64,000 nt of DNA from Eledone cirrhosa (lineage: Eukaryota): assembly GCA_964016885.1 (NCBI GenBank), contig OZ024741.1, positions 332,072,001 through 332,136,000 of the forward strand, read 5' to 3'. The notes below the pieces were generated by a model. That model was not told the origin of the DNA. It did not search any database and was given only the letters and a program-made list of their open reading frames with translations. The position numbers and the translations under genes are program-made. Shown piece after piece: positions 21,643 through 43,927 of the stretch. Positions within the stretch are counted from its first letter, which is position 1, and each line of letters starts with the position of its first letter.

Positions 21643-21831
21643 AGCGAGGGAAAAGTAGTAAGGAACCAGATGGACCAAAACGCACCAAAGTACTCAATAC
21701 TTAGGGTAGTAGAGTGGGTAATAGGAGTAAGTAAGACCCCGACGGCTGAGCTCAAGCCGTTTCGACGGCTAATTCTGAATTAGCCGTCGAAACGGCTTGA
21801 GCTCAGCCGTCGGGGTCTTACTTACTCCTAT
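21643..21831 (-). repeat. Family X copy with a perfect 111-bp terminal palindrome
   Basis: 21721-21831 is symmetric about 21776. Confidence 0.92.
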
Positions 21832-21842
21832 ATATATATATA

Positions 21843-22075
21843 TGAAGACGCATGGCTTAGTGGTTAGAGGTTGTGAGTTCGATTCTTGGAAGGGATTTTT
21901 GTTACGTTCTTGAGAAAAACACTTTATCTCACGTTGCCCCAGTTCACTCAGTTCCAGTTCACTAAGCCTTTCCCTTGGACAACATCGGGAGACTAGTATG
22001 CATGGGCGACTGCTGGTCTTTCACAAACAACCTCACCAGACTTGTGCCTCGGAGGGGAACTTTCTAGGTGCATTA
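21843..22075 (+). mobile_element. tRNA-derived CORE/V-like SINE
   Basis: tggcttagtggttag A-box, gagttcgattc B-box, cttgagaaaaacacttt. Confidence 0.75.
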
Positions 22076-22925
22076 TCCTTACCCATATATTATATATATA
22101 TGGTCTTTATTGTGCTCAAATCTATTCATAAGGCACCTATTGTCATCTGTTGTAATGCCCATATTCCTAAGAAGAAAATATATTAAAAGGTATTTAAAGA
22201 TTGCATAACATAATTTTAAAAATATATTAAGAATACCTAATAAAGAAAATAATTAAAAAATATATTCTACGAAAATTATAAAACATATACAGAACTTCAG
22301 TATATACAATGTTTTTAGCGTCGATAGATTTATAATCATTTGTAAGAGATTTTATTGATAGTGTTCACTGTGTTTTGGAGGCAAGCATTGCTCTTTCACA
22401 CTCCTCATTGTAATGGAGTATTTATAAATACGAGAATACTAAGCTTACAATGCTTTCCACAACAGTACAAAATGATGAAGGATCAAAACATCCTTCAGTA
22501 TTAAAGGATTGCTTTTCTATAAATTTAAACAGCTGAGAGGTGCTTATCTGTAACTCCTAGTGTCCCTCTCTCTGCCTTTGTTATTCGAACTGAAGAAATC
22601 TCCGAGACTGGGAAAATCCCAGGGCCCTCTCTGTCCCACCTCCCACGTTCCGTTTTCGGAAAAGAAGGTGATTGCAAGCATGTTGGAGGTCAGATTAGTT
22701 GAAAACACACGAAAAAACCTAGGTAAAAAAAATGTTCACGATCTTCATATATATGTCTCCATCTTCCACTGTTGTGTGTGTGTGTATATATAACCCCCCC
22801 CCCCCATCTCAAGCGTGAACCTAATACTAACACTTTGTACTGCACTCTTCGCTATTGTTTTTGTTTTCTGTTTTAACTATAATATATATATATATATATA
22901 TATATATATATATATATATATATAT

Positions 22926-23123
22926 ATAGGAAAAAAGTATGACTCCGACGGCAGATGTCAAGCCGTTTCGACGGCTATTTCTGGACCAGAAATAGCCGTC
23001 GAAACGGCTTGAGCTCTGCCGTCGGGATCATACTTTTTTCCTATTACCCACTCTACTACCCTAAGTATTGAGTACTCTGGTGCGTTATGGTCCATCTGGT
23101 TCCTTACCACATCTCTTTCGTTA
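22926..23123 (+). repeat. Family X copy with a 119-bp terminal palindrome
   Basis: 22926-23044 is symmetric about 22985 with a few mismatches. Confidence 0.92.
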
Positions 23124-23149
23124 TATATATATATATATTTATACATATA

Positions 23150-23318
23150 TGAAAAGTTCCGGGCTTTGGGAAAGTACAGGAGGATCAATTAATTAAGCTT
23201 TTATTCAACATATTCCCCTCTCAGATACACAAACTTATTGCAGCGGTCCTTTCTCCCCTGTAAAAGTAACAGCTCTACCCTTTTGCGATACACTTAAGCC
23301 AGGAACTTTTCAGCACCA
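23150..23318. mobile_element. Tc1/mariner-like MITE
   Basis: Terminal inverted repeats tgaaaagttccgggctt / aagccaggaacttttca. Confidence 0.6.
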
Positions 23319-24452
23319 CAGTATATATACACATACAGCAAGAATGGGAGACGCATATGCATAGATAGAAAAGAGGTAGTGCGGAGGGGGGTAGTGAGAG
23401 AGGAGGAAGAGGAGGGGGAGAGATTAAGTCAGATGTCAGACCGGCAGACAACAAACATAATAAAATGTAGAAAAGTTTTAGTTAGTTAGAGAGAGGGGGA
23501 GGTGGATTTAATCAGAGCTGAAATAGTATTTCACTTTCTTTTTATAGATATGAGAGATGATCAGACAGTATCACTGAACTAGAAATAGCAGTAAATTCTC
23601 ACCCAACTCGTCCCACCACTCCATTTTCAGAAAATAAGTCGACATTTATCTTGATAGAGGTCAGATTAGTTGAAAACACACGAAAAACGTTATTTATTAT
23701 CAATTAGTAGTCATCGTACAAACAAACTTGCTTTTCATAAGAATATAAATATATATCATACTATATATATATATATACACACACATATATATATATATAT
23801 ATATATATATATATATATATATATACATACGTTTATTCTCATATTTACACATATCTTTTCCCTCGCTATCACCCGTCTATTTCGTTCTTACTGCTTCCTC
23901 TTTCTCTGTATCTTTACCCTCTCTAGCAGTCACTCTCTCTGTTAGCCTATTCCTCACCCTTCACTCACTCACTCTCTGTTACTACCTCTCCTCCTCCTCC
24001 TTCTTCCCGTTTGACCTGTGCGTTATTCTTTTCTTTCGCACCCTTGGTCAGGCAGGTCTCCTTTTTTTTCATCCTTTTTTTTCACTCTCTCGTCTACGAT
24101 TTCACAGAACTTATGTTTACCGAATTCACAGACTAGACCCCTTCTTCCTCCCGTTAGACCTGTACGGAATTCCTTCCTTGCTCACATTCCAACCAGGTTT
24201 GATGGTCTTTATTCTCTCTCGTTCACGATTTCACCGAACTTATATTCATGGAAATTTGGGATTTGATTCCTTCTTCCTCACTTTTCGTTGCTTCACCATC
24301 TTTGTTTGTTTACACTCTCGTGTCCCCTTTATTTACGTGTCCCAACGACTTTTTTTAGCCGTTGCTCGCACCAACCGGAGGTATATGGTCTTTAAAGCGA
24401 TGAAATACCAATGATGGTTGGAAGATCAATGATGAAGGACTAACTTTATTCA

Positions 24453-41454: not shown

Positions 41455-42055
41455 ATCACTTGGGTCTTGAGATGGAGGCATCCTCTAAAAATTTCCCTCC
41501 GAGTTCAAATAATATTGTTCAGAGATGACAAACCTTGTAATATCCTAAATTTCTCACTCAGAGATGACATTTCTTGGTACAATTGGTGTAAGGACTGGAT
41601 CTTTCAAGTATCTTCCAAGAGATCTTATGTGGGGCTCCTTTCTCTTTTAATTGCCATACTTTTTGCACTAGGGCTGTACTGGTTCTCACATCAGAATTCC
41701 TGATGGAGAGGAGATGCATGTAAAAACGTTGTTTAAAGCGATCTTGCATCCTACAGACTTATCTTTTGCTAACTTCAGAATTGTCTGTGTTATTATGTGT
41801 AATCTCTGCCTCATACACAAACGATTTGATATTACAATTCTGTTGGAGTGGGCAGTTCTCTTTAATCCTACAAGAGCAGCTATGATTATCGTTGGGTATA
41901 TTCTTTGCAGTAATATTTGATCTCATAGACAAGCCACATAAATAGGATATCTTGACGGAATTATGATTGAATATTTTACTATATCTATGTTGTGGTGAGA
42001 AACCTATTATCAAATAAATCTAAAAATGTCTTACTTACATTAGTGTTTACTAAGT
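41455..42055 (-). pseudogene. Penelope-like element GIY-YIG remnant with Cys-rich linker
   Basis: SKIFNHNSVKISY..CSCRIKENCPLQQNC.IKSFVYEAEI...FKQRFYMH...TSTAL..VWQLK...ISWKILE.SSPY...KKCHL, with in-frame stops. Confidence 0.8.
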
Positions 42056-42528
42056 CTGTGGAATGCTCAGCCACTTGCAAGTTAATTTCATAAGAAAGAA
42101 TGTTATATTGTATTGATTGAATGACAGGGACACTCATAATCAAAACCCGATGTTCCATTTGAATGGGATAAAACGAACAAGAGAATGGCAGGGAGTTGAA
42201 AAATAATCATCTAGATCCTTGAAAAATATATAGAAATAGATAAATGTATTTCGCTAGAAATATTCATAACATTGCTCATGATCAAACATTAGAAATATAG
42301 AACTAAAATAGCTAACACTTTCAGAAAAAGTTTTTAAAAATATACAAGTAATGAAATACATATTTTCTTATATATTTATTCCATCTGTTAAAATGAAAGA
42401 AGAAAGGGTGAATATATCATTTTATACAAACACTGTAAACATTCACTTTTCATTCATAACATATTAAACAATCTGCATCCTCATTCTCTCTCTCTCTCTA
42501 TATATATATATATATATATATATATATA

Positions 42529-43301
42529 TCATCATCATCATCATCAACGTTTAACGTCCGTGTTCCACGCTTGCATGGGTTTGGACGGGGGTATTCCCAC
42601 TTGAGGCAAGAGTGATTGTCTTGCTCGCATAGGACTGTCTTGCAGGTTTTCTACAGTTGGATGCCCTTCCTAACACCAACCACATTTACAGTGTGGGACT
42701 GGGAGGTTTTTACCGTGTTGCCTACACGGCCACATTACAGCGTGGACTGTGTGGTTTTTTTGTCGTGACACCTACACGATCTCATTTGTTTCGGCCTGGA
42801 TGTTGTGGCACCAACATAACTTTACATAGGAGGGGGTGGTGTGGATGGGGGTGTGGGTGGTGGGACGGGGGTGTATTTTGTTAGAGATGCCTACTGGCTG
42901 TAGTAGGTTTTACTATGTATTTAGGTAAGGCGGGTCTTCTCTATTACTGAGTACCGCCAAAGGTCTCGGTCCAGTGACATTGTCTTGGAGAGGTGTAAGT
43001 GTGTGAGGTCGGAATTTAGCAAGTCATCCCAGGATTTTCTAGGTCTGCCTATTCCGTGGCTACCGTCTATCTTTATTGCCCTGCACTTTGTTATACAGCT
43101 ATCGACTTTCATGCGCATCACGTGTCCGTACCAACGTAGCCTTCTCTCGAGTAAACAACATCTGATCCCTCTTATTTCTAATTTTTTCCTTAGTTCGTTT
43201 ATGCTTTGCCGTTCACGTATATTACTATTGCACATCCAGTGGAGCATACAAGCTTCGTTCCTCTCTAGTCTGCGTATATTCTCTGCGCACAATGCCCAGG
43301 T
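42529..43301 (-). mobile_element. RTE LINE 3' end (subfamily B)
   Basis: ORF 42921-43292 is nearly identical to 3794-4222; (GAT)n tail; (TA)n flanks. Confidence 0.92.
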
Positions 43302-43360
43302 ATATATATATATATATATATTATATTAATAAATGGAAACTATATTTATAAAACCATATT

Positions 43361-43425
43361 TATTTCATTATACATATTTCAAGGACACCAAAGCAAATTA
43401 TGGTGCGCTTTCATCAGATAAAATA
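43361..43425 (-). ncRNA. Type-I hammerhead ribozyme with long stem II
   Basis: Minus strand TATTTTAT-CTGATGA-AAGcGCACCA..TGGTGTcCTT-GAAA-TAtgTA-T-A-ATGAAATA; 8-bp stem I. Confidence 0.65.
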
Positions 43426-43721
43426 TAATATAGATCAGTTTTATAAACAAATATTGACATACCCTTAAAAGAATGCGACCATGTCTGTTGGAAACTCCCG
43501 GATAGTTGAGTGCTTTATATCAGTTATAAAAATATTTGCTTGTTGTATCCCAACAAATATAACTTCAATTAAATATAACTTCTACATATATATATATATA
43601 TATATATATATATATATATATATATATATATATATATATATATATATATATATATATATATATATATGTATGTATATGTATATATATATATATGTATGTA
43701 TATATATATATATATATATAT

Positions 43722-43927
43722 ATAGGAGAGAGTATGACCCCGACAGCAGAGCTCAAGCCGTATTGACGGCTATTTCTGGACTACTTTAGTCCAGAAATAG
43801 CCGTCGAAACGGATTGAGTTCTGCTGTCGGGGTCATACTCTCTCCTATTACCCACTCTACTACCCTAAGTATTGAGTACTCTGCTGCATTATGGTCCATC
43901 TGGTTCCTTACCACAACTCCTCCGTTA
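43722..43927 (+). repeat. Family X copy with a 127-bp terminal palindrome
   Basis: 43722-43848 inverted arms around an acttt loop. Confidence 0.92.

Follow-up and report, generated by a model that had tools for sequence, protein, structure and literature searches.

Among the Penelope-like elements (PLEs) that carry an endonuclease (EN+ PLEs), the inserted unit is described, in the parts of the literature that deal with its structure, as a pseudo-long-terminal-repeat (pseudo-LTR or pLTR) with an adjacent inverted and 5'-truncated copy and a 30-40-bp tail at one end only, the tail of Pen2a_Av measuring 31 bp, and the origin of these inverted repeats and tails is stated there as open (PMC8557442, PMC3846280). 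The Hydra clade, whose endonuclease is C-terminal, is characterized in the corresponding sections of its description by DKT in place of DKG, by RW(K/R), by a CxCx5C linker and by CxxC/CxH around the E and N residues, with the CCHH motif absent from the EN domain; "almost all" of its families are said to insert into (TA)n, and its members are "generally short (<3 kb)", which is worded as a tendency (Craig et al. 2021, PMC8557442). In this article, I discuss Family X, a repeat with hairpin arms found in a 64,000-nt stretch of the Eledone cirrhosa genome (GCA_964016885.1, contig OZ024741.1, positions 332,072,001 to 332,136,000 of the forward strand; hereafter the window). Family X is the 3'-terminal part of a ~3.6-kb PLE and neither a miniature inverted-repeat transposable element (MITE) nor a short interspersed element (SINE); it is the known PLE insertion unit in a new family, most copies of which are reduced to tail and arms. 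In the reading that I favor, with a probability of roughly 60%, its copies are short 3' insertions of a Hydra-type PLE in (TA)n, and their hairpin likely formed when the two DNA ends of a cut target primed reverse transcription of the same RNA from two fixed positions separated by 80 nt.

Read antisense to the open reading frame (ORF) of the PLE, a copy consists of (TA)n, a unique 80-nt tail (AACGAAGGnnnTGTGGTAAGG...GGGTAAT), an arm that opens with AGGA and 8-11 variable bases before continuing into ...GACCCCGACGG..., a centre, the reverse-complement arm ending ...TCCT, and (AT)n. The 23-mer at the tail/arm junction, GGGTAGTAGAGTGGGTAATAGGA, has 14,941 + 14,945 = 29,886 exact sites in the 3.0-Gb genome, while its backwards control has 0; since only 3 of the 7 copies in the window contain it exactly, the family is likely at least twice as large as this count. 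The first 30 genomic sites of the 23-mer form a sample drawn without regard to the hairpin, and 7 of them run past the hairpin centre into one common long sequence. All six long copies examined as 10-kb stretches are fold-backs, with arms of 99, 125, 158, 515, 1866 and ~2170 bp at 94-99% identity, a unique centre contiguous with the tail-side arm, and an inverted arm that ends at ..TTC(C)T + TATA in every case. One long copy, L061, has an open frame of 710 codons (P0001) on its sense strand, which makes the tail the 3' end of the element's sense strand, and its 3,571 sense nucleotides, together with ~35 nt of 5' end from other copies, give the unit of ~3.6 kb.

P0001 has 403 homologs of ~700 amino acids each, one of which, P0093, passes RVT_1 at 31.4 bits versus a cut-off of 29.6, and an AlphaFold (AF2) model built on 23 homologs reached a predicted local distance difference test score (pLDDT) of 83.9. 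The top Foldseek match of this model is the telomerase reverse transcriptase (RT) 3du5_A (E 4e-8), followed by 6usq_A, and the top VIA matches are again telomerases, 6zdp_A (Z 16.4, root-mean-square deviation (rmsd) 2.7, 259 residues aligned) and 9swo_A (Z 16.1), with residues 581-684 matching the GIY-YIG catalytic domain of I-TevI, 1ln0_A (Z 9.8, rmsd 2.4, 88 of 92 residues; VIA). By its predicted fold, P0001 is a TERT-like RT with a C-terminal GIY-YIG (I-TevI-like) nuclease. Inspection by eye further identified HSDKTG (DKT), RLRWRT (RWR, not RWK), CNCPDRSIC (CxCx5C), CNLCSEE (CxxC..E) and NKKDELVTACKH (N..CxH), as well as the GIY-YIG residues VIY..YIG, R, E and N, and no CCHH pattern was seen, by eye only, in residues 575-710. 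The architecture around this ORF is equally that of a PLE: where copies reach the 5' end of the ORF, 6 of 12 loci (L069, L070, L072, L073, L076 and L078) show a pseudo-LTR, with the 3' untranslated region (UTR), arm and tail running straight into ATCTAGCTCC..ORF, and at the remaining loci an inverted copy lies upstream; exact matches to the pLTR junction ..CGTT|ATCTAGCTCC number 147 genome-wide. All 6 long copies have an inverted 5'-truncated copy next to them and a one-sided tail, and so do the two-armed classes, 69 of 90, of a sample of unselected copies from the first 22 Mb of one contig (L031-L060 and L079-L138), and each subfamily of short copies has its own long parent. The RT/GIY-YIG partner that a first-pass annotation of the window had thought worth seeking past the hairpin centre is thus present in the longer copies; the same annotation had regarded a described MITE or PLE terminus with a fixed hairpin as contrary to its view, and here the architecture of a described PLE terminus is indeed matched but the hairpin centre is not fixed.

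The same evidence makes a DNA transposon derivative highly improbable, whether a Stowaway-like MITE with TA duplication, a Helitron end with a 3' hairpin or a fold-back element. TA flanks on both sides, palindromic terminal arms and the lack of an ORF in the short copies would all suit such an origin, but the arm sequence continues (antisense) into the 3' UTR and the RT/GIY-YIG ORF, one end always carries the non-repeated 80-nt tail, inner breakpoints differ between copies, direct pseudo-LTRs exist, and neither a transposase nor a Rep/helicase was met in the ORF list of the long copies.

The hairpin copies have two fixed outer ends. Site 1 is the end after the 80-nt tail (..CCTTCGTT|AT) and site 2 lies 80 nt upstream of it (..TTCCT|AT), where the inverted arm always begins. 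For the commonest subfamily there are 9,363 exact genome sites of TA|AGGA and 8,796 of tail|AGGA, and when the first 100 sites of each kind were searched for facing pairs within 250 bp, 44 mixed pairs, 1 TA-TA pair and 0 tail-tail pairs were obtained, a near-exclusive mixing which indicates that the start sites of the two ends are not chosen independently. The flanks are TA-rich on the tail side in 71 of the 90 sampled copies, most others having at least ATATA adjacent, and on the arm side in 40 of 65. The sole TA-TA pair (L141, G000:C1:54339800-54340150) was the only candidate for a tail-less hairpin and was rejected as such, its tail being found 36 bp off, behind an internal (TA)18. That repeat, at 232-266 of L141, stands exactly at the arm/tail boundary (..TTCCT|(AT)n|ACCCACTC..) of an otherwise ordinary copy, and TATTA at start site 2 can apparently either give rise to a TA microsatellite or accept one. 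A repeated motif noticed by eye upstream of both start sites was also rejected, as shuffles reach its score in 174-1,969 of 2,000 trials.

How the two arms relate to each other can be asked of the 50 sampled copies with both arms of at least 40 nt, whose outer 40 nt were compared. Arms differ by a mean of 2.68 edits within a locus versus 7.18 between loci (arm 1 against a foreign arm 2), and arm 1 against a foreign arm 1 gives 7.08 edits, so that there is no effect of side and left arms do not cluster with left arms in the left-versus-right comparison that had been proposed for this family. The outer 12-mer is the same on both arms in 23 of the 50 copies versus 2.64 expected (maximum 9; 2,000 shuffles), and the own partner arm is nearest or co-nearest in only 21 of the 50, a figure explained by the near-identity of many copies within a subfamily. 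At 6.7%, the difference between the two arms is about twice the divergence of the tail from its subfamily majority (3.9%), a comparison for which the means alone are used, tail age and arm-to-arm difference being weakly correlated (rho 0.19, p 0.19). The two arms of a locus therefore match and afterwards drift apart at roughly the neutral rate, as would arms that start out identical and evolve freely, which argues that they are made at each insertion and not homogenized later; of the two explanations offered in the first-pass annotation, this upholds arms produced anew per insertion and speaks against subsequent conversion.

These numbers also bear on the idea that the hairpin element itself replicates whole, as a SINE- or MITE-like non-autonomous element whose arms are kept alike by RNA-hairpin selection or gene conversion. 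The centre type CTGGTCCAG recurs in 7 of 58 copies, the odd centre CTGGCGTCCA is common to L056 and L098, and Rfam scores the hairpins as generic miRNA-precursor-like stems, below every gathering score, all of which would be in keeping with such replication. However, the centre CAGTCCAG recurs across subfamilies (L089, L106 and L112), and the same centre types in different subfamilies point to hot spots rather than descent; moreover, every short-copy subfamily has a long parent of its own, the arms differ from each other by about twice the divergence of the tail from its consensus, as is not expected under homogenization, the short copies are without a TATA-like box, and neither the tail RNA, which has no stable fold (z -0.21), nor the region of the hammerhead-like motif discussed below (z -1.62) folds more stably than shuffles, so that I consider whole-hairpin replication quite improbable.

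The inner breakpoints bear on how the arms were made. Among the 90 copies, 40 are near-symmetric with arms of at least 40 nt and 4 near-symmetric with shorter arms; the tail-side arm is clearly shorter in 17 and longer (up to 80 nt) in 5; 8 run on for more than 100 nt; in 6 one arm is joined directly to TA and in 4 an arm is joined to unrelated DNA; 3 have a tail on the other side also (in L053 ~170 nt away); and in 3 the second arm is decayed. When 28 unselected short copies were compared, the end of the longer arm fell at CTGGAC, CTGGACT or CTGGACTR, 6-8 nt after GGCTAWTT, in 19 of them, and 4 of the 6 one-armed copies stop at 50-58 nt. Copies L045 and L118 have A18 and T17 filler between their arms exactly after CTGGACT; these bases could have been added without a template, or synthesis could have jumped to a poly(A) tail where the template ended. 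In sense orientation this breakpoint is the A of T(C/T)AGTCC, a sequence that fits the initiator (Inr) consensus, and a TATA-like box (TATTTAAATA-like) lies 29-31 nt upstream of the same A. PLE pLTRs with a TATA box and an Inr-like site have been reported, in the part of the literature that treats their promoters (PMC3846280). The RNA would accordingly be placed, from these signals, as starting at the Inr-like A, ~59 nt upstream of site 2, and the common 59 + 59 + 80-nt hairpin would represent two run-off copies of its first ~139 nt.

A second pile of breakpoints lies at 14-20 nt and is confined to the tail-side arm, where it comprises 9 of the 17 copies with a clearly shorter tail-side arm (p = 1e-4 versus a uniform spread), while the mirror shape, with a long tail-side arm and a short inverted arm, occurs in 0 of the 90. 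This pile coincides with the 3' edge of a GC-rich block, also the predicted hammerhead cleavage position, and two copies in the window (E and F, below) belong to it. In L124, of the same shorter-tail-side class, an inverted arm of more than 1 kb faces a tail-side arm of 63 nt, and when the centre was assigned to one arm or the other in the 58 copies with both anchors, it belonged to the tail-side arm in 14 and to the inverted arm in 21, was ambiguous in 4 and consisted of filler or was long in 19.

Here the strongest competing explanation has to be weighed, namely a self-primed snap-back in which the cDNA from the tail end folds back at its 3' end and the second arm is copied from the first, as hypothesized by Arkhipova et al. 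(2013), the only paper on self-priming of PLEs found in the literature covered. Most centres do resemble a stem closed by a loop of 3-8 nt (CTG-GACT-CAG, for instance), and the arms of nearly all copies are of the same subfamily, as copying one arm from the other would produce. Yet a copied-back strand would need to stop exactly at site 2, sparing the 80-nt tail, in 6 of 6 long fold-backs and in the 44:1:0 pairs; the supposed template arm is shorter than its copy in 17 of the 90 copies, L124 being the extreme; of the 35 copies whose centre could be assigned, 21 have it as part of the inverted arm; and a few copies have arms of different subfamilies. A fixed stop at site 2, mixed ownership of the centre, longer inverted arms and a one-sided 14-20-nt class are hard to obtain from a simple snap-back and fit two cDNAs, and I therefore regard snap-back as unlikely, although it deserves more weight than the replication and transposon models. 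For the fold-back proposed in the first-pass annotation, this means that the origin of the arms at each insertion stands while literal templating of the second arm on the first is doubtful.

In the favored two-primed reading, the two DNA ends of the cut target would each start a cDNA on a single RNA, with the site-2 product in the lead and the site-1 product behind it on the same molecule. The trailing site-1 cDNA would have to displace the leading one and would often stall at the GC-rich block, but both would mostly run to the Inr-like 5' end of the RNA, where the 3' end of either cDNA could jump onto the other, leaving a head-to-head, near-perfect palindrome with a centre that shifts by a few bases between copies. 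The resulting short copies, being without the promoter (the TATA-like box), would be dead on arrival. More tentatively, and at somewhat less than even odds, PLE insertion in general may be an obligately two-primed reaction on one RNA, in which a cut by the GIY-YIG nuclease comes first, the outer RT trails by strand displacement and the cDNAs are joined at the capped start of the RNA; if true, obligate two-priming would account together for three long-standing puzzles of PLEs, namely why a pLTR is inverted, why the junction is palindromic and why only one end has a tail.

Several points weigh against this reading and the identifications beneath it. Both the start of the RNA and the reliance on a single RNA molecule are deduced from DNA; the 90 copies were chosen by an exact 23-mer and so lean towards young copies; the two-piece alignment of the arms is accurate to about +/-2 nt; and deletion of the palindrome centre after insertion can blur breakpoints. 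Usually only one of the two arms extends to the end point, its partner falling 3-8 nt short, which fits a snap-back loop too, and in L094, L096 and L113 the two arms bear the outer motifs of different subfamilies, so that these chimeric insertions, at least 3 in number, need two RNAs, a template switch or later recombination. On the protein side, Pfam returned no family in P0001, including no PF01541 score, RVT_1 was recovered in only 1 of 23 aligned homologs, a profile of the 23 homologs had no match at E<=1 among PDB sequences, and placement in the Hydra clade rests on motifs.

The hammerhead-like motif deserves separate consideration, since the first-pass annotation had likened a GAAAC that follows the central stem to the 3' half of a hammerhead. 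The likeness appears sound: on the sense strand of the long copies a three-helix motif can be drawn by eye, ACCCC-(C/U)UGANAA-helix II-GAAAC-helix III-GUC|GGGGU, in which the (C/U)UGANAA half stands upstream of GAAAC, helix II consists of a G-C pair followed by 6-9 bp and closed by a loop of ~33 nt, and helix III has 6 bp. In 12 sequences the core is canonical except at positions 3/8, which are U-A in 7, C-A in 4 and U-G in 1, and the helices pair in 92.9% of cells with 0 compensatory pairs, these being the same 12 sequences used to draw the structure. A natural U3-A8 hammerhead variant has been described in the Cercyon PLEs of Schistosoma, according to the portion of that report concerned with it (Cervera and de la Pena 2014, PMC4209133). 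Rfam reported no hammerhead when the window was scanned at the gathering score, when 21600-23200 was scanned at E<=10 (where only generic miRNA-hairpin models appeared, below their cut-offs) or in the long copies, and the minimum free energy fold of the region is not a three-way junction. The 5' half of the motif is found only in longer copies, while short copies hold the part downstream of the putative RNA start, and this is why GAAAC had been seen there without CUGANGA.

Within the window itself, BLAST with the sense strand of L061 recovered Family X at exactly the seven places listed in the first-pass annotation, with coordinates recounted here and the strand of a whole copy given as the PLE sense strand, and there is an extra weak 40-bp match to L061 at 19969-20008. 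Copy A (3725-3803, -) is the 80-nt tail, the 3'-terminal piece of the PLE, alone between (TA)n runs and without arms, and is one of 321 exact genome sites at which the tail is joined directly to ATAT. Copy B (5440-5582, +; 80% identity to L061) is a decayed two-armed copy with a (GAT)n left flank, an inverted arm at 5440-~5462 that has suffered internal loss, a direct arm at ~5463-5505 and a tail at 5506-5582. Copy C (21644-21829, sense on -) has its tail at 21644-21722 (-), a contiguous tail-side arm at 21723-21776 (-) that ends at the centre (ctaattc-t) and owns it, and an inverted arm at 21777-21829 (+) that ends ...ctcct adjoining (TA)n at start site 2. Copy D (22928-23122, sense on +) has an inverted arm at 22928-22986 (-) that extends from AGGA beside (TA)n to CTGGAC and owns the centre, a tail-side arm at 22987-23042 (+) that contains the hammerhead-like 3' half (GAAAC, a GGC..GCC stem, then GUC|GGG), and an 80-nt tail at 23043-23122 (+) that ends ..CTTTCGTT beside (AT)n at start site 1. 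Copy E (34716-34806, +) has a (GA)n left flank, arms of ~18-19 nt that meet at ..CAGG|GGGTCC, the predicted hammerhead cleavage position, and a tail at 34753-34806 with an internal deletion; in copy F (37551-37641, +) a 17-nt inverted arm (37551-37567) is joined via ACCC to a tail without its first 7 nt. Copy G (43724-43926, sense on +) consists of an inverted arm at 43724-43783 (-), a 3-nt centre (ctt) with the tail-side arm at 43784-43846 (+), the arm itself occupying 43787-43846, and an 80-nt tail at 43847-43926 (+). The arms of copies C, D and G are 53-60 nt long, and (TA)n lies on both sides of 5 of the 7 copies, the arm side being (GAT)n in B and (GA)n in E. The copy-specific outer motifs reported on both arms of a copy and the common ATAGGA arm end were likewise confirmed, and the absence of an ORF from short copies agrees with the copies inspected. 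The sequence GCCGTTTCGACGGC (<=1 mismatch) occurs 5 times in the window versus 0 expected (100 shuffles); elsewhere, in L031, the inner small palindrome of one arm reads GCCGTCGAAACGGC and not the expected GCCGTTTCGACGGC, the loop of the small stem being flipped on that arm only.

A few observations concern the surroundings of these insertions. In L002 the same ~14-20-nt sequence (CTTTGCTTCCGTTC[A/G]AG..) is found outside the TA runs on both sides of the element, which may be a long target duplication that puts the TA runs inside the insert, or a repeated context. A different repeat, ending ..catgctagcatgg..cggacgtaaaac + (GAT)n, lies by eye beside Family X copies at 3540-3600, 5370-5440 and 21400-21450, and directly after copy C, at 21846-21990, a tRNA-like SINE head (gcatggcttagtggttagag..gttcgattc) can be recognized, also by eye. 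A tRNA match at 15643-15713 (-), with 41.8 bits, is all that Rfam yields for the window at its gathering score, and at 50745-53448 a G-rich 42-bp minisatellite (64 copies, 96% match) accounts for a strong GC skew between 50 and 54 kb.

Small palindromes in TA repeats, some 30,000 or more of them, are easily filed as MITEs or unknown repeats when they are really copies of one PLE family and, probably, dead on arrival. Dual priming and self-priming can be separated by the near-exclusive pairing of sites, the one-sided short tail-side arms and the breakpoints piled at the Inr-like site, and the family offers tens of thousands of natural junctions for testing two-primed insertion. Furthermore, thousands of near-perfect 55-60-bp palindromes in microsatellites might give rise to hairpin RNA and interfere with replication.

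Compared with known systems, Family X shares with Stowaway-like (Tc1/mariner-derived) MITEs a small size, palindromic arms and TA on both sides, but unlike them its tail end has no terminal inverted repeat, its arms come from a retroelement 3' UTR and its inner breakpoints vary. A Tc1/mariner-type MITE was considered and rejected on the unique 80-nt tail at one end and on arms that are the antisense and sense of that 3' UTR. The 5' inversions of L1 are said to arise by twin priming, reportedly set out by Ostertag and Kazazian in 2001, with a second primer that anneals at varying internal places. The mechanism proposed here would resemble it in that both DNA ends prime on the RNA and the joined cDNAs leave a 5' inverted segment; the second start, which varies in L1, is one fixed site in Family X, and whereas the L1 segments cover different parts of the RNA, here both cDNAs would cover the same stretch and yield a true palindrome. 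Animal non-LTR retrozymes are presented as non-autonomous PLE derivatives in the relevant part of a recent preprint (Li, Clavereau and Pollet 2026), and to the extent of that account Family X is like them a non-coding, pLTR-derived sequence spread by a PLE, with a putative hammerhead-like motif in the pLTR, but its hairpins are dispersed single insertions instead of tandem arrays and hold only the 3' half of the motif instead of a complete hammerhead per unit. At one locus, L139 (G000:C3:214145800-214148600), an ORF-less derivative of the same PLE does form a tandem array, 5.7 x 273 bp at 658-2222, in whose unit ~95 nt from the 5' end are combined with the final ~90 nt of 3' UTR and the 80-nt tail; its last unit ends at site 2 beside (TA)n, with an inverted copy upstream, and the array is retrozyme-like but without the hammerhead-like 5' half. 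With the Hydra clade, as far as its description extends, the PLE of Family X shares DKT, RWR, CxCx5C, CxxC/CxH, (TA)n insertion and a homolog set of aquatic-invertebrate type, and it departs from that clade in its unit of ~3.6 kb against a tendency to shorter elements, in a non-canonical hammerhead-like motif (3/8 U-A, C-A, U-G) that Rfam does not score, and in the very high copy number of its short stumps, the 29,886 exact junctions given above. Finally, Family X has direct pLTRs, an inverted copy placed head to head so that the junction is palindromic, a one-sided extension and heavy 5' truncation in common with the canonical EN+ PLE unit in the published outlines of it, from which it differs in a tail of 80 nt as opposed to 30-40 bp and in the reduction of most copies to just 59 + 59 + 80 nt, which makes them look like a separate non-coding hairpin family.

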